This document shows positions 16,005 through 63,877 of a stretch of DNA of 64,000 nt, piece by piece. Numbering within the stretch: position 1 is the first letter of the stretch; each line of letters opens with the position of its first letter. A program made the translations under genes and the position numbers. A model generated the notes under the pieces. That model searched no databases, was not told the DNA's origin, and saw only the letters and a program-made list of their open reading frames with translations. The DNA lies in NCBI GenBank assembly GCA_951406725.2, contig OX597820.1, positions 117,118,001-117,182,000 on the forward strand, given 5' to 3'. This DNA is from Octopus vulgaris. Lineage: Eukaryota.

Positions 16005-16446
16005 TATATATATATACAATAAAAGCAATTAAGATTCAAGTCAATTCTAATGAATTCACTTGAATGCGGTACTTAACTTAGATGCACCAGAAAACTATAT
16101 GGTGTTAACCATATAGTAATGTGGGGTGATACTGGGTTTATCTGCTGCAATATTTGCAACTTTTAATAAAGCCTGTCTTTGTATGACCAACAATGTGTAA
16201 CTAAAAACTAATCCATTCTTGTTGCTTCTTTCTCGTTTATATATATATATATATATACTAAGCAATAAAGGGTTTAGCAACGAATTGCCTTACCACAGAC
16301 CGAATTTAGAAATAGCAGTCAAAGAGTTATAGCTATTTCTTCTACTAAAAAGGGAGATCTCAGTAAAAAACACAACAATTGGAAGGCAGACACAAACAGG
16401 TAAGAGAGAATGAATTGACGGCAATCTATCATACAATTTTAAGTTA

Positions 16447-16546
16447 TCTACGGACGCACGTTTCGAAATCAAGTTTTTAGGAAAGCATGAGAATTAAATA
16501 TTAAATAATTCTACGTTACCCAAACTTCTTTTCTCTTCAGCGTAGA
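16447..16546 (-). ncRNA. Type I hammerhead ribozyme, intact core
   Basis: Minus strand: TCTACG-CTGAAGA-GAAA...TTTC-GAAA-CGTGCG-TC-CGTAGA; 6-bp stem I and GUC cleavage triplet. Confidence 0.75.
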
Positions 16547-16862
16547 ATACTATAATCATAAGTGATTATATATTGAATTTTGAGATACTAGAAGGCACCA
16601 ACTCAACTCAGTATCAGAGCGAGCTAGAATCCGCAACTAGTATCACCAAACTCAAAGTGTTAATGAAAGGATTGTGTCACCAGCCCCTTCCCACCCGCGT
16701 GTAGCCAAAACAAGATGCTATGGTCATCTACTGAGATAAAATATGGTTATCCGTAATAATGAAGGGTGAAATTAATTAAGAGAAAACAAAGAGACAAGAT
16801 GAAACTAGTATTCGTATGTTGTATTTATATATATATGTATTTATGCTTCTCTTCTGTGTGTC

Positions 16863-18050: not shown

Positions 18051-18358
18051 GAACTAATCTACATGGTTGGATGCAAATAAGGGCACAAGTGTTTTCCTTC
18101 AAATAATGGCACAGGGTTTTCCTTCTCCAAGTAAAATGCCTAAACAAAGGTTTGGGGTTTCTTACTCCCAGCTGTTGATTCTTCTGAACTCATCTGCCCT
18201 TTGATAGGTTTGGGTTTTCATCATGTAGGGTGTTCTGCAAAACCCACCCTCCTTATCAACCAAATGCGACAGGGTTGCCAGCTTAGCCACTGACAGTTCA
18301 ACCAAACACAAGTTGTACTGGTTTACATATTACTAATAGCATTAAGACTGACAGACAC

Positions 18359-18371
18359 ATCATCCATCCAT

Positions 18372-18407
<36 letters not shown>

Positions 18408-18565
18408 CCATCCATCTATCCATACATACATACATACGTACGTACATGCATACATACATACATACATACGTGCACACATCTAACATACCACCCATTTATC
18501 TATCTATCTATCTATCAACCTACCTACTTATCTATCTAACTATCTATCTATCTATCCATCTCTCA

Positions 18566-18634
<69 letters not shown>

Positions 18635-18680
18635 CCTACCTACCTACCTACCTACCTACCTACCTACCTACCTGCCTACG
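18359..18680. repeat. (CATC)n/(CATA)n/(TATC)n/(TACC)n microsatellite
   Basis: Directly visible. Confidence 0.95.
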
Positions 18681-18681
18681 T

Positions 18682-19854
18682 GCCTAGGAAGGGTGAATGG
18701 CACCGCGAGTGTTGCATTGCTCTCAAGCAACTATGCCGTTCCGGGTCAACCTTGAGTGACTTCAACACAACCAAAGCATTCTATAGGGGATTAGTGGAGG
18801 GGAGGTACGACGACAAGCTCAGGGCGAACCTGGACGTCGACGGGGAATACCTGACTCGCCTGTTCAGGATGATTTTTGGGCCAGGGCCCAAGGACAACTT
18901 CCAGAGATCCCTGGCCTGGCAGTGCTACCAAGAAGTGCTACCCGTTTGGGATAAGCTCTACAGACACGGCTCGAGAAACACGGGGCCAAACTGCCCGAGA
19001 TGCGGTCAGAGTGACGAAACCATTTTGCACGCACTTGTGCAGTGTCCAACAATTTCTGACCAGTGGGACTATGTCGAACAACTGCTGTCACGTGTGGGAC
19101 GAGTCAGTTTATCAGCCAAGTCTATCATCAATATTGTCACGCCTCCTTCCTTCAAACGGGAAGGAAGAGCTATTTTCATCATCCTTGTGGCTATGGCAAA
19201 AGAATGTTTCTGGTGGACACGTCTGAAAGGATTGGAGACTAACACTATCTTCTCTGGTCAATCTCTCATCAACTTCTTCAAGTATCACTTGAAAAGTGAG
19301 AGTAGAGAGGCAAGTTTTGTCTAGCGAATGTTTTAAAAAAAGATGAGTGAATGTAGCAAGGATGGCACGTATGAATGACGAAGCCACTTTGAGCATAATC
19401 CTATGAACCCAGAAATTGAAAACAGAGGGTTACCCACTTGCAAACAAATGTGGTAACATATAACAATATTGACCAAGGTTACCATGGTCTTTTTCGTAGG
19501 CTTTTCTTCCCACGGATAAACCTTACTTGCTTTCCCCTTTACACCATATATCATAACACTGTGATACAGGATCCCTATTGATCGTTTTTTTTCCCTCTTC
19601 CCCTTTTTATTCTTTTTTCATTTCTCTTTTCTTTTGTTCCTTTTCCTTTTCTTCTTTTTTTATTTTTATTTTTTTATTTTATATTTTATTTTTTTTGTTC
19701 TTTTCTTCCCTTTTACGATCCCTCTTGATCGAAAACCTACGCCCACCCTTTTTTTTGTTTCTTTTGTTTTTTGTTTTTTTCATCCCCCAAAAGAAAAGCT
19801 CTACCTTGTAACTTGTCCCATCTGTGTGCAGCCCTGTGTGGCCAATAAAGAAAC

Positions 19855-24367: not shown

Positions 24368-24554
24368 CGGCCATCGGAAAAATACTATGAAAATGACCGT
24401 TAAGCAAAGGGAAATTACTATGTTATTGACTGTTATTAAGACAGAAGAGCTATTTAGTGGTCATTCGAATAGCTCTTTTCTCTTAATAACGGTCAACCAC
24501 ACAGTAATTTCCCTTTGTTTAACAGTCATTTACATAGCATTTTTCCAATGACCG

Positions 24555-24615
24555 GATAACTGAAGAGAAGGCGGCATGGATTTCCACCTCAGCATTCGAA
24601 ACTCAGAGTTTTATC
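24555..24615 (+). ncRNA. Type I minimal hammerhead ribozyme, intact core
   Basis: GATAA-CTGAAGA-GAA...TTC-GAAA-CTCAGAG-TT-TTATC; quasi-palindromic stem III and GUU triplet. Confidence 0.75.
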
Positions 24616-24678
24616 ATGGCTACCGAATAATTGTCACATATTACATTTACAGTATATATATATATATATATATACATA

Positions 24679-33273: not shown

Positions 33274-33755
33274 CATCATCATCATCGTTCGACCGTGGTC
33301 GAGACAATGGAATTTACCATGCTACGCCAGACTTCACGGTCCATCATGGCACTACGGAGGTTCTGTTGCTGGATGCCTGTATCTATGCCTGTATCTACAT
33401 CAGGGTAGGAGAGTGTGCGCCCTCTGGTATCGCGAACAGATGGCTTCCAAAGGAGAAGAGTAGAAATTACCTCTTTTTCAGCTCTACAACAATGTCCAGC
33501 AAACTGGACTCTCCTACCTTTCACAAGAGATGACACAGGTGGTAGTTTCCCATATATTTGCATTTTGGTTGGATGACCCTTCCACGAGAGATTTTGAGCT
33601 CTCATAAGGAGGCGAGTGTAAGTTCCATCCAACTGCCACTCAAGCTTCTTTGATAATGTCCAGGTTTCTGAGCCATATAGTAGAATTGGTTCGACTGTGG
33701 CTTTGAATATTTCAAGTTTGAAGTCTCTACTTAGATTTGATGACCAGATCTTATG
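33274..33755 (-). mobile_element. RTE-clade LINE 3' fragment
   Basis: Same family as 822-1153; extends upstream to an LLYGSETWT motif. Confidence 0.8.
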
Positions 33756-33974
33756 TACAATTAAGATCTGATGTACAATTAAGAGGAATTAAATTCATTA
33801 TTTTGAATAGTTAAAGAGATTCAAAGTCAAACCGGTATTGTCCTTGCTGTTCACTGGCTTTGAATATATATATATGAATTCTATAATTATAAGCATAATT
33901 ATAATTAAGGTTCAGCAAAACTCCGACGTAGGGTTCATTGAAACTCCGACGTCTGGCAGCTGACTTGGCAGACA

Positions 33975-40047: not shown

Positions 40048-40098
<51 letters not shown>

Positions 40099-40343
40099 GT
40101 TGTCGTTTAACATCTGCTTTCCATGCCGGCATGGGTTGGACAGTTTGACTGGGGTCTGGGAAGTCAGGAGGCTGCACCATGTTCCAGTCTGATCAGATTG
40201 GGACCTGGTGCAGCCTCCTGGCTTCCCAGACCCCTGTCAAACTGTCCAACACATGCCGGCATGTAAAGCGGGCATTAAACGATGATGATGATGAATACTT
40301 TTAACCTCTATTTTTAGCTATGCAAGTACTCATGTAGTACCCT

Positions 40344-40394
<51 letters not shown>

Positions 40395-40615
40395 TCAATA
40401 TAGGGTGGCAAAAAAATTTTGTAGAATTCTTTTGCCACCAGCGCCTAGTAGGAAAAAATTAAAATAGTCATAGACCATTTTTAAGTTCAACATCAACAAT
40501 AAAGGAACGGCCATAATAGGCCATTCACCCACTAGAAATAACAGCCAAAGCTTCAACCGCAAATAAAAGTTAATTCAGTAAACCAGGAGAAAATTTTAAA
40601 AACATTTACCCTGTA

Positions 40616-40722
40616 ATTTCTTATACGATATACCGTTTCATCTGCTGATTAATGGTAAACTAACCTGATTAAATTAAATCAAGCCAATCTTCCACAGGCC
40701 CTCAGATTCTTCAGTAAGAAAT
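40616..40722 (-). ncRNA. Type I hammerhead ribozyme, copy 1
   Basis: ATTTCTTA-CTGAAGA-ATCTG...CAGAT-GAAA-CGGTATATCG-TA-TAAGAAAT. Confidence 0.85.
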
Positions 40723-41107
40723 AGCCCAAGACGGAACAGATATTTTCACGAGGCATTTCCGACGTTGCCAAGTTTATATCTGACCTAAAATTTTCAAATC
40801 GTCGCACTCGCGCCAAATTTATCGGCAGCAAATAAATATAAGCCGTCGATTCCATTACGGAATTAACCAGAAAATTCATAATTAATCAATATAGGGTGGC
40901 AAAAAAATTTTGTAGAATTCTTTTGCCACCAGCGGCCTAGTAGGAAAAAATTAAAATAGTCATAGACCATTTTTAAGTTCAACATCAACAATAAAGGAAC
41001 GGCCATAATAGGCCATTCACCCACTAGAAATAACAGCCAAAGCTTCAACCGCAAATAAAAGTTAATTCAGTAAACCAGGAGAAAATTTAAAAAACATTTA
41101 CCCTGTA

Positions 41108-41214
41108 ATTTCTTATACGATATACCGTTTCATCTGCTGATTAATGGTAAACTAACCTGATTAAATTAAATCAAGCCAATCTTCCACAGGCCCTCAGATT
41201 CTTCAGTAAGAAAT
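41108..41214 (-). ncRNA. Type I hammerhead ribozyme, copy 2
   Basis: Same motif, 492 bp from copy 1. Confidence 0.85.
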
Positions 41215-42025
41215 AGCCCAAGACGGAACAGATATTTTCACGAGGCATTTCCGACGTTGCCAAGTTTATATCTGACCTAAAATTTTCAAATCGTCGCACT
41301 CGCGCCAAATTTATCGGCAGCAAATAAATATAAGCCGTCGATTCCATTACGGAATTAACCAGAAAATTCATAATTAATCAATATAGGGTGGCAAAAAAAA
41401 ATTTTGTAGAATTCTTTTGCCACCAGCGGCCTAGTAGGAAAAAATTAAAATAGTCATAGACCATTTTTAAGTTCAACATCAACAATAAAGGAACGGCCAT
41501 AATAGGCCATTCACCCACTAGAAATAACAGCCAAAGCTTCAACCGCAAATAAAAGTTAATTCAGTAAACCAGGAGAAAATTTTAAAAAATTTAAAAAATT
41601 TAAAAAATTTAAAAAATTTAAAATTTTTTTTAAATTTAAAAAATGGGTAAATGTTTTTTAAATTTTCTCCTGGTTTACTGAATTAAGTTTTATTTGCGGT
41701 TGAAGCTTTGGATGTTATTTCTAGTGGGTGAATGGCCTATTATGGCCGTTCCTTTATTGTTGATGTTGAACTTAAAAATGGTCTATGACTATTTTAATTT
41801 TTTCCTACTAGGCCGCTGGTGGCAAAAGAATTCTACAAAATTTTTTTGCCACCCTATATTGATTAATTATGAATTTTCTGGTTAATTCCGTAATGGAATC
41901 GACGGCTTATATTTATTTGCTGCCGATAAATTTGGCGCGAGTGCGACGATTTGAAAATTTTAGGTCAGATATAAACTTGGCAACGTCGGAAATGCCTCGT
42001 GAAAATATCTGTTCCGTCTTGGGCT

Positions 42026-42132
42026 ATTTCTTACTGAAGAATCTGAGGGCCTGTGGAAGATTGGCTTGATTTAATTTAATCAGGTTAGTTTACCATTAAT
42101 CAGCAGATGAAACGGTATATCGTATAAGAAAT
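42026..42132 (+). ncRNA. Type I hammerhead ribozyme, copy 3
   Basis: 8-bp stem I, CTGAAGA at 42034-42040, 5-bp stem II, GAAA at 42109-42112, GUA cleavage predicted after 42124. Confidence 0.85.
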
Positions 42133-42519
42133 TACAGGGTAAATGTTTTTTAAATTTTCTCCTGGTTTACTGAATTAACTTTTATTTGCGGTTGAAGCTT
42201 TGGCTGTTATTTCTAGTGGGTGAATGGCCTATTATGGCCGTTCCTTTATTGTTGATGTTGAACTTAAAAATGGTCTATGACTATTTTAATTTTTTCCTAC
42301 TAGGCCACTGGTGGCAAAAGAATTCTACAAAATTTTTTTTTGCCACCCTATATTGATTAATTATGAATTTTCTGGTTAATTCCGTAATGGAATCGACGGC
42401 TTATATTTATTTGCTGCCGATAAATTTGGCGCGAGTGCGACGATTTGAAAATTTTAGGTCAGATATAAACTTGGCAACGTCGGAAATGCCTCGTGAAAAT
42501 ATCTGTTCCGTCTTGGGCT

Positions 42520-42626
42520 ATTTCTTACTGAAGAATCTGAGGGCCTGTGGAAGATTGGCTTGATTTAATTTAATCAGGTTAGTTTACCATTAATCAGCAG
42601 ATGAAACGGTATATCGTATAAGAAAT
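42520..42626 (+). ncRNA. Type I hammerhead ribozyme, copy 4
   Basis: Same motif; predicted cleavage after 42618. Confidence 0.85.
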
Positions 42627-42748
42627 TACAGGGTAAATGTTTTTAAAATTTTCTCCTGGTTTACTGAATTAACTTTTATTTGCGGTTGAAGCTTTTTGGC
42701 TGTTATTTCTAGTGGGTGAATGGCCTATTATGGCCGTTCCTTTATTGT

Positions 42749-42783
<35 letters not shown>

Positions 42784-42897
42784 TACATGTCTTACACTTA
42801 TGTATATCTTATAAATTTGTCTGTACGGTTAGTATTCACTTGCCACTAGTTATGGCATTTTAATAGTACTATCGCTCTCATATTTACTTCTATTACA

Positions 42898-43965: not shown

Positions 43966-44431
43966 AGAATATATTTATAAATGTGTATACCTATGCATGT
44001 CTTTGTATAAGTGTTTGTCCTCCCACCTCTATTTAATAACTGGTACTAGTTAGTTTGCACTCCATGACTTAGTGATTCAGCAAAATACTGACAGAATAAG
44101 GACCAGATTTAAAATAAGTACTAAGGTCGATTTGTTCAACTAAACCTGTGCCCCAGTATGGCCACAGTCCAATGTCTGAAGCAAGATTTAATTATACCTA
44201 ATGATACAGCAGTTCATCATCATCATCTTCGTTTAGCATCCGCTTTCCATGCTAGCATGGGTTGGACGGTTCAACTGGGGTCTGGGAAGCCAGAAGGCTG
44301 CACCAGGCCCAGTCTAATATGGCAATGTTTCTACGGCTGGATGCCCTTCCTAACGCCAACCACTCCATGAGTGTAGTGGGTGCTTTTTAACCCATAACTA
44401 GAAGATTCCTTATCTTTTTTCCTCCATTTAC

Positions 44432-61227: not shown

Positions 61228-63877
61228 TCAGTCTCTGGTAGATGAACAGGGTTGCAAATTGCTCGAGCCAAGTGAAATGTGTGAGGCCTTTCAACAGCAT
61301 TTTGCCTGACTGTTCGTGACGAGTGGTGGGCAAGAACGTAGAGTGGACTTCAGTGCCTACCTACATGGCCTACTACAACTCTCAACAAGAGAGGCAGGGC
61401 ACTGCGAAGGTGCCATCATGGCAGCGGAAATGCAGGAAGTGATGGCAGAATGCTCGAGGAACAAATCGCTAGGTTTGGATGGTCTACCCTACGAGCTTTA
61501 CAATTCTATGCCAGACTTGTTTGGAGATCTCTTGGCGGCGGTGTACTGCAACTGGCAGCAAAACGGGAGCATTCCTGGTTTTGTGAGCCGAGGAGCCATA
61601 ACACTGCTGAAGAAAGATCTAAACAAGGGGAATGTAATAGATAACTTTAGGCCCATCACTCTGCTTAATGCAGACTTGAAAATTTTGGCCAAGGTGCTAG
61701 CCAAGAGGTTGGCGCTTGTCATCGAGAAACTGGTTGACAAGGCGCAAACATGTGCAATGCCGGGCCGGAGCATCCATGACAACCTCCACCTGATGCGCTG
61801 CATCACAGACAGGGTAGTTAAGGAACCTGGCATGGGTGGATCAATCGAAAGCTTTCGATAGGGTAGACCATCAATAGTCGGAGGCTGTCCTCAGAGCGGC
61901 TGGTTTCGGTCCCGTCTTCCGTGGCTGGATAGCCGCTTTGTACAGAGGCATCCATTCGGTAATTCGTGTAAATGGACATCTATCGAGACCTTTCGACATT
62001 GCACGTTCGGTCCCTCAGGGATGTCCCCTCTCATCGCTTCTCTACGTATTGACTCTCAAGCCATTATTGCAGAAGCTGGCAACTCTGAGGGGCATCCCGC
62101 GAGAATTGGGATGTGGGATGAGCGTGTCTGCATATGCGGATGACGTCACTGTCATAGTGTCTAGCCACAAGCATATCGAGCAGGTCGGCGAGACACTGAA
62201 AGACTATGAAGCGGTTACAGGAGCGAAAATCAACCAGGAAAAATCAGTGGGCTTGTAACTCGGCACCTGGAGAAACAAGCCCATGCCGTCCACCAGTGCC
62301 TCCATCATGGGACGCTGGACCGACAGTCCGGTCGAGTTGCTCGGGGTCTGGTTTGGTCCGGACCTCCAAATGGAGAAGAACTGGAACGAGATAACGAGTA
62401 GGGTGGTAACTCTCGCCAGGCAATGGGCCAAGAGGAAACTGTCCCTAAAAGGTCGGGCAGAGGTGGCGAACTCGTACATCGCGTCCAAGATCTACTACCG
62501 CCTGACCGTCGTGCCTTGTCCCGACACTACCATCACCAAACTAGAACGCATTCTCTTTCGCTTCTTGTGGAAAGGATGCGTCCCGATGGTCAGGCGATCC
62601 ATTTTCTGTCAACACCCGTTAAAAGGAGGACTGGGCATGCCGTGGTTGATGATGCGCAGACACGCGCTGAGACTGCGACATCTCTGGCTCTATGTAGACG
62701 ACGGTGAACAGGTGTGGTCGCCGTTTGTGAGGCACGCTTTCCCGCAGCTCGTCTCCATGACCGAACTGCAGTCGTGGATCAAAAATAGGCCGAGGAAGGG
62801 CGAATGGCACCGCGAGTGTCGCGTTGCTCTCAAGCAACTATGCCGTCCCGGGTCGACCTGGAGTGACTTCAACACAACCAAAGCATTCTATAGGGGATTA
62901 GTGGAGGGGAGGTACGACGACAAGCTCGGGGCGAACCTGGACGTCGACGAGGAATACCTGACCCGCCTGTTCAGGACGACTTTCAGGCCAGGGCCCATGA
63001 ACAACTTCCAGAGATCCCTAGCCTGGCAGAGCTACTGAGAAGCACTACCTGTTCGGGATAAGCTCTACAGACACGGCTTGAGAAACACGGAGCCGACCTG
63101 CCCGAGATGCGGTCAGAGTGACGAAACCGTTCTGCATGCACTTGTGCAGTGTCCAACAATTTCTGACCTGTGGGCCTATGTCGAACAACTGCTGTCACGT
63201 GTGGGACGAGTCGGTTTATCAGCTGAGTCTATCGTCAATATTGTCACGCCTCCTTCCTTCAAACGGGAAGGAAGAGCTATTTTCATCATCCTTGTGGCTA
63301 TGGCGAAAGAATGTATCTGGTGGACACGTCTGAAAGGATTGGAGACAAACACTTTCCTCTCTGATCAGTCTCTCATCAACTTCTTCAAGTATCACTTGAA
63401 AAGGAAAGTGAGAGTAGAGAGGCAAGTTTTGTCTAGCGAATGTTTTAAAAAAGATCGGTGAATGAAGCAAGGATGGCACGTATGAATGACAAAGCCACCT
63501 TGAGCATAATCTTATGAACCCGGAAATTTAAAACAGAGGGTTACCTACTTCCAAACAAATGTGGTAATATGTAACAATATTGACCGAGGTTACTGTGGTC
63601 TTTTCCGTAAGCTTTTCTTCCCACGGATAAACCTTATCTGATTCACCCTTTACACCTTACATCATGACACTGTGATACACGATCCTATTGATGGTTTTTT
63701 TCTTTTGTTTATTTTCCTTTTTCTTTTTTTCTTTTTTTCTTCTTCTTCTTTCCCTTTTACGATCCCTTTTGATCGAAAACCTACCCCACCATTTTTTTTT
63801 CTTTCCCCAAAAAAGAAAAGCGCTACTTTGTAATCTGTCCCGTCTGTGTGCAGCCCTGTGTGGCTAATAAAGAAGCA
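61228..63877 (+). mobile_element. 5'-truncated Tx1/L1-clade LINE with disrupted ORF2 (RT plus CCHC) and 3' UTR
   Basis: KSLGLDGLPYELY, NFRPITLLNADLKILAK, QGCPLS, YADDVT, CPRC..HALVQC; stops and frameshifts; (TATC)n on both flanks. Confidence 0.9.

Follow-up and report, generated by a model that had tools for sequence, protein, structure and literature searches.

The stretch analysed here (the window) spans 64,000 nt of the Octopus vulgaris genome (assembly GCA_951406725.2, contig OX597820.1, positions 117,118,001 to 117,182,000, forward strand) and holds, between two (TA)n microsatellites, a palindromic array of ~492-bp units that carry hammerhead ribozyme motifs. The array represents a single insertion of a retrozyme family that is young, mobile, non-coding and without long terminal repeats (non-LTR retrozymes). 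Tandem Repeats Finder resolves it into a left array at 40387-41593 (period 492, 2.5 copies, 99% matches) and a right array at 41645-42752 (period 494, 2.2 copies, 98%), placed head to head around an A/T centre, much as the original prediction, made from the sequence alone, had described it. The inverted arms are 99-100% complementary across 500-660 nt, and the centre is filler that iterates a 9-mer taken from the neighbouring unit. Units are numbered from the first base past the predicted cut, which is window position 42125 (Table 1).

To place the array in its family, we searched the whole genome (2.80 Gb, 227 contigs) with the window unit and obtained 257 matches (39 scored of 772 candidates), most of them at 99% identity and dispersed over many chromosomes, which answers the copy-number check proposed with the original prediction and bears out the young age it had assumed. 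All loci among the matches listed were analysed, 38 in addition to the window; two of them, L050 and L191, share flanks and are counted once, giving 38 independent insertions. These are the best-scoring and hence the youngest copies rather than a random sample. The unit has a modal length of 493 nt (65 of 123 intervals) and a G+C content of 35%, and is non-coding, since its longest open reading frame (ORF) is 66 codons. An ORF joining reverse transcriptase and GIY-YIG endonuclease was not found in the unit, and the 39 loci hold just units and filler between their (TA)n flanks. The hammerhead core in tandem units, the dispersed non-coding arrays and the absence of LTRs support the retrozyme identity first proposed. 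The unit size, thought unusual at the time, falls within the range of 51-972 bp given for animal retrozymes in the available part of a 2026 preprint (bioRxiv 10.64898/2026.07.22.740005). L050 and L191 lie ~63 kb apart on C11 and represent the same insertion duplicated, with identical flanks and differing unit numbers; the difference is either a change in array length after insertion or a difference in assembly.

A scan for the paired-stem motif finds four hammerheads in the window array, two per strand, with predicted cuts 494 nt (plus) and 492 nt (minus) apart as originally reported. The distance from core to GAAA is 68 nt (5+58+5), so that the 58-nt insert noted in stem II has the stated length and is better described as a long paired extension of that stem than as a loop. 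The ribozyme region and the monomer fold more stably than all of their dinucleotide shuffles (z = -3.8 and -4.3, respectively). Rfam models, suggested earlier as a check, returned no hammerhead over the window at gathering thresholds, nor over 40300-42800 at E<=10, probably because stem II here forms an extended domain of 68 nt, and the call therefore rests on motif, pairing and covariation. An antisense-polarity ribozyme was likewise not found, the paired-stem scan giving one motif per unit in one polarity and Rfam no other at E<=10; the unit differs in this from viroid-like RNAs with ribozymes in both polarities. Of the 189 family units that cover the core, 186 have it intact, a conservation among genomic copies that had been named in advance as a test. 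Self-cleavage of the unit transcript is predicted from these features.

Covariation was assessed over 12 aligned copies of this family (family A) and two sister families, B and C, which amount to only three independent lineages, with the structure drawn from the same sequences. Across the 55 proposed pairs, 95% of cells are paired, compared with at most 46% in slid controls, and changes on both sides occur among the three families in 14 pairs, compared with at most 3. All three families have a self-complementary 10-nt stretch in stem III, and this extends to the two bases at its centre, for which pairing is possible only from one ribozyme to another. In DNA-type runs, 42117 and 42118 show a linked double change (at equal depth in run X3) that preserves this symmetry, which fits the dimeric hammerhead model as set out in the available part of PMC4209133.

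We then compared the form of the 38 insertions. All but one (37 of 38) are two-armed head-to-head palindromes, 36 of them by BLAST and L201, with a second arm of 16 nt, by eye. The mirror symmetry that had been singled out as unusual is thus the normal insertion form of the family, and also of an autonomous Penelope-like family in the same genome (below). The left arm is always minus and the right arm always plus, with 3' ends facing outward and truncated 5' ends meeting in the middle, and (TA)n borders nearly all ends, a setting in which a target-site duplication would be masked. The outer ends fall at unit position 132-134 (site 1) or 230-244 (site 2). In 35 of the 37 two-armed insertions one end lies at each site, and in none does the same site occur twice. 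Site 1 is located within a conserved multi-hairpin junction, likely a protein-recognition element to judge from its covarying pairs, and site 2 after one further hairpin. Arm length ranges from under one unit to 9.3 units (longest 4608 nt) and is alike for arms ending at site 1 and at site 2, with medians of 1184 and 1153 nt (p = 0.40).

Of 36 junctions between the arms, 24 have an overlap of 1-6 nt, one is blunt and 11 contain filler, often copied from a nearby unit; microhomology of at least 2 nt is present in 20 of the 25 filler-free junctions, compared with 17.9% expected. Inner truncations are enriched just downstream of the cut, with 10 of 74 at positions 1-22 where 3.3 are expected, in an interval chosen post hoc. 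L036 and L037, although independent insertions, both have unit positions 56-88 inverted at their junction, as a piece of 31-33 nt, beside arms that start at 460-468, which points to a template jump that recurs.

Table 1 Features of the retrozyme array and its flanks in the window.
Feature	Position	Strand	Remarks
Left (TA)n target microsatellite	40348..40389	.	Tandem Repeats Finder
Left arm, ~2.45 units	40387..41593	-	outer 3' end ~position 240 (start site 2); inner end 5'-truncated near 16-22
Type I hammerhead copy 1	40616..40722	-	core start 40714; last base before predicted cut 40624
Type I hammerhead copy 2	41108..41214	-	core start 41206; last base before predicted cut 41116
Central A/T filler, 51 nt	41594..41644	.	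connects the two 5'-truncated arms
Right arm, ~2.25 units	41645..42752	+	outer 3' end position 132 (start site 1); inner truncation position 13
Type I hammerhead copy 3	42026..42132	+	core start 42034; predicted cut after 42124
Copy 3 elements: 8-bp stem I, extended stem II, self-complementary 10-nt stem III	stem III 42113..42122	+	
Cut-to-cut monomer, 494 nt; predicted circular RNA	42125..42618	+	family mode 493
Conserved multi-hairpin junction, holds start site 1 (42256 in this unit); likely protein-recognition element	42213..42303	+	covarying pairs, families A, B, C
'Tail' between start sites 1 and 2, ~108 nt	42257..42364	+	end positions 132-134 and 230-244 over 38 insertions
Type I hammerhead copy 4	42520..42626	+	core start 42528; predicted cut after 42618
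Right (TA)n target microsatellite	42751..42781	.	Tandem Repeats Finder

Sequence variants tie the two arms of an insertion together. While singleton substitutions amount to 0.07% of bases, 20 of the 38 insertions have most or all of their units marked by one of 12 variant haplotypes, a pattern expected if arrays pass through a bottleneck of one unit. At private variants the two arms agree in 17 cases and disagree in none, whereas arms shuffled among loci give means of 1.9 concordant and 31.5 discordant. Some haplotypes recur on different chromosomes, indicating that they were inherited from templates.

The sister families were traced from a diverged copy near L046 (family B, ~490 nt, 65% identical) and from a fragment in L078 (family C, ~478 nt, 79% identical). 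Both are older, and both retain the hammerhead, by compensatory changes, and the two end sites. Among 20 distinct loci of family C, 13 are two-armed with canonical ends and all 13 show one end at each site; two further loci have a non-canonical end and five are single-armed. A first look returned 2114 candidates for family B and 1418 for family C (L053:1109-1720, L078:1501-2200, L169, L185). Many copies of both families are mirror-image insertions less than one unit long and could pass for miniature inverted-repeat transposable elements (MITEs). Fragments of Penelope-like elements (PLEs) beside family B copies in L053 and L078 were considered as partners and set aside as neighbouring insertions, because their families have unrelated ends.

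Several young Penelope-like families sit in (TA)n in the same genome, and four of them (PLE-X, -Y, -Z and -W) were examined. PLE-X (781 aa) and PLE-Z (775 aa) each give a Pfam RVT_1 match just under the cut-off, plus GIY-YIG. PLE-Y (1312 aa) has no Pfam match. Its alignment to PLE-X covers the reverse transcriptase (E 1e-11) and, at weak significance (E 0.003), the endonuclease region, with the two regions placed as they are in PLE-X. Twenty PLE-Y loci were chosen for a minus/plus pair; two sites 56 nt apart are used, one per arm, in each of the 19 loci whose two ends were captured, and the target is again (TA)n. Within a locus the PLE-Y arms do not differ (0 of 6740 bases, compared with 0.28% between loci), and they can exceed one unit. 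The rule of one end at each site holds for two of two PLE-Z loci, and PLE-X occurs mostly as direct tandems (10 loci). By behaviour only, PLE-Y is the best match for a partner of the retrozyme. A colinear likeness between the first 132 nt of the unit and the PLE-Y terminal region was rejected, as its z relative to shuffled sequences was 1.7-2.1 and higher scores came from other stretches of these elements.

Canonical hammerheads were not found in the terminal regions of PLE-X and PLE-Z; PLE-Y has, ~127 nt upstream of its first end, a motif that resembles a hammerhead but whose core is non-canonical. Hammerhead-like matches at window positions 16400-16550 (minus) and 24550-24620 (plus) are unrelated to the array and resemble a minimal motif at the 3' end of PLE-W in L080. 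The PLE-Y ORF (L141:2278-6213, minus) contains a long insert rich in asparagine and serine, and its insertions are strongly palindromic. PLEs are usually described with a single ORF. PLE-X and PLE-Z (L119:1768-5468, L209:1340-4935) have a second one of 479 and 454 aa, respectively, without a Pfam match, located upstream of the reverse transcriptase-endonuclease ORF and overlapping it.

Outward-facing fixed ends and inward-facing truncated ends indicate that each arm is a first-strand complementary DNA (cDNA) primed from one side of the target; the presence of one end at each site implies that the two priming events are coordinated and unequal, and the haplotypes shared by the arms point to a single template variant. 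An anole PLE protein nicks and extends both target strands and starts at two sites inside the RNA, between which lies the tail; it has been modelled as a dimer (PMC11167929). We therefore favour, as the probable explanation, a non-autonomous retrozyme mobilised by a Penelope-like reverse transcriptase-endonuclease through double priming on a repeated template, probably the circular monomer; the original proposal of such an enzyme acting in trans gains support from the insertion anatomy, the ends and the arm haplotypes across the family. Paired hammerheads would split read-through RNA from an array into monomers of 493 nt, and a host ligase would circularise these, as in known retrozymes. The PLE protein would cut both strands of a (TA)n tract, and both free 3' ends would prime on one template variant, at ~132 and ~240 to judge from the ends. 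Each polymerase would then copy several units, most simply by rounding the circle, and end joining of the microhomology or filler type would connect the far ends of the two unfinished cDNAs, yielding the head-to-head palindrome. A stricter version, in which one PLE dimer would hold a single 493-nt circle at two fixed sites 108 nt apart and prime both strands of the cut (TA)n target, and its two polymerases would follow each other round that circle by strand displacement (double rolling-circle twin priming), is put forward tentatively, as a possibility somewhat more likely to fail than to hold.

Sequencing runs offer a weak hint of expression. The unit is present in 20 of 24 listed runs, which bear four organism labels plus one metagenome with a small share; the share is 0.05 in run X20 and 0.00 in runs X21-X24. 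Four runs were assembled, with contig depths not taken as copy number or expression level. Run X2, presumed to be RNA by guess, yields exactly one contig, of 523 nt, which closes on itself (493 nt plus a 30-nt overlap), and run X4, of similarly guessed status, yields a contig across the joint.

Several observations weigh against this scheme or its stricter form. Some arrays are mosaic, with a variant in 3 of 9 units of L201, 2 of 4 of L048, 2 of 8 of L043 and part of L196, and one unit of L042 lacks the variant of its array; a single monomeric circle alone does not explain the mosaics. L193 is single-armed, and L042 and L206 each have one non-canonical end. PLE-Y builds the same structures although its 4.6-kb unit lacks a canonical hammerhead, which means that a palindrome can arise with no circle involved. 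None of PLE-X, -Y, -Z and -W shows a significant sequence match to retrozyme families A, B and C, and the genome holds further PLE families. The in vitro study of the anole protein found that start sites did not differ between strands and that ribozyme cleavage was not needed (PMC11167929), and eight of nine Xenopus retrozyme dimers failed to cleave in vitro, according to the part of the 2026 preprint available (bioRxiv 10.64898/2026.07.22.740005). The contigs of X2 and X4 have a depth of 8-20, and tandem DNA gives the same cyclic contig.

The mosaic arrays suit a multimeric template, and RNA left unprocessed is the main substrate in vitro (PMC11167929), both of which would be natural if the same double priming by a PLE took place on a linear, uncut multimeric transcript, or on two RNAs from one source locus, with circles as by-products. 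PLE-Y arms, which are likewise identical within a locus and can exceed one unit, fit such a template, as does the post hoc cluster of inner truncations downstream of the cut, as if some templates ended there. Truncation at the 5' end could, however, only shrink arrays from parent to daughter, yet arms reach 9 units; the 12 array-wide haplotypes at a singleton divergence of 0.07% would need a monomer bottleneck or fast homogenisation; and the ribozyme has been conserved by compensatory change. We regard the linear template as unlikely, while it is the alternative to be taken most seriously. The identity of the arms could also have arisen from one cDNA folding back to prime itself or switching to its own product, or from later gene conversion and local tandem expansion at the DNA level evening the arms, and long palindromes can homogenise. 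Self-priming has been proposed for head-to-head junctions of rotifer PLEs in the available part of PMC3846280, and three of our 36 junctions, the window's among them, are nearly symmetric (0.7 expected, p ~0.03). The other 33 are asymmetric, however, either arm may be the longer (p = 0.40), folding back would not place the end of a copy at another fixed site, 108 nt past the first, and variants are common to loci on different chromosomes and so inherited from templates; we consider both routes very improbable. Palindromes and (TA)n tracts are hard to sequence, so that fold-back chimeric long reads or a collapsed repeat might mimic such an array. We give an assembly artefact scarcely any credence, since left and right flanks differ in sequence, junctions differ at every locus while the ends are fixed, the pattern recurs in three retrozyme families and two PLE families, and the unit is found in DNA-type runs of other studies and under a second organism label.

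Elsewhere in the window, an inverted repeat to the left of the array (40091-40294; 102-nt arms, 86% complementary, no spacer) is built from a dispersed repeat with another copy at 44214-44310, and broken reading frames resembling those of non-LTR retrotransposons were recognised by eye at 61310-63461, 18287-19324 and 33282-33788.

Two questions are described as open in papers cited here, namely whether Penelope-like enzymes do copy animal retrozymes from RNA circles, and how PLEs generate their tandem and inverted structures and one-sided tail. In the octopus family the insertion signature of Penelope elements can be seen directly, and counted, on a retrozyme. The family also offers a 493-nt substrate whose two start sites are mapped, a simple target and, in the same genome, candidate enzymes that are young and intact, so that both questions become testable in vitro. 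If copying from a single circle is correct, the arrays are a genomic record of that process and also of the origin of PLE inverted repeats and one-sided tails. Mirror-image arrays could in addition give double-stranded RNA on read-through, and the long stem II probably explains why this ribozyme escapes standard RNA family scans.

The comparisons that follow draw on the available parts of the sources cited. Retrozyme circles are known from coral, mussel and axolotl, and their rolling reverse transcription by PLEs has been proposed (PMC7229834, PMC7761336); the 2026 preprint ties retrozymes to PLE terminal repeats by distribution and phylogeny (bioRxiv 10.64898/2026.07.22.740005). The octopus family resembles metazoan non-LTR retrozymes in its dispersed short tandem arrays and non-coding low-GC unit without LTRs (PMC7229834), as well as in having one type I hammerhead per unit, co-occurring PLEs and a length inside the published range. 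It differs in its nearly obligate head-to-head palindromes, two fixed complementary 3' ends, (TA)n targeting and a 68-nt stem II domain that Rfam models miss. The preprint describes retrozymes as monomers, dimers and multimers only, and the word 'inverted' is absent from the main text of PMC7229834. A homologous PLE terminal repeat is reported for 24 of 57 Xenopus families (bioRxiv 10.64898/2026.07.22.740005), compared with none among the four PLE families here. In our search, which lay outside subscription papers, repeat databases and the supplements of retrozyme papers, we found no report of palindromic two-ended retrozyme insertions or of cephalopod retrozymes, and an octopus repeat annotation mentions neither ribozymes nor retrozymes in its text or supplement.

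PLEs have been described with inverted 5' copies, one-sided tails of 30-40 bp and a bias for (TA)n (PMC8557442, PMC3846280). With endonuclease-positive PLEs the family shares head-to-head inverted arms, a tail at one end and A/T-rich or (TA)n targets (PMC8557442, PMC3846280, PMC11167929), together with the order of hammerhead, start site 1 and start site 2; it differs in the absence of an ORF, a tail of ~108 nt instead of 30-40 and two multimeric arms. The occurrence of one end at each site, counted here in a retrozyme, is nearly strict, whereas the passages on PLEs call the tail optional or often one-sided. Dimeric hammerheads likewise have a self-complementary helix III that lets neighbouring ribozymes pair (PMC4209133); unlike theirs, the octopus stem III stretch is 10 nt long, and a monomeric tetraloop fold is also plausible. 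L1 twin priming, in which both target strands prime on the RNA and leave an inverted 5' part, is similar in outline (Ostertag and Kazazian 2001, as described in PMC9148063), but L1 uses its poly(A) tail and a variable internal site, whereas the retrozyme has two internal sites, each of them fixed, and several units are traversed by either product. Retrozymes and the inverted and tail structures of Penelope elements are each known, and we found no paper joining them. The octopus array thus belongs to a known kind of element, and what is new is its insertion form, with a near-strict, countable Penelope signature and a tail about three times the usual length.
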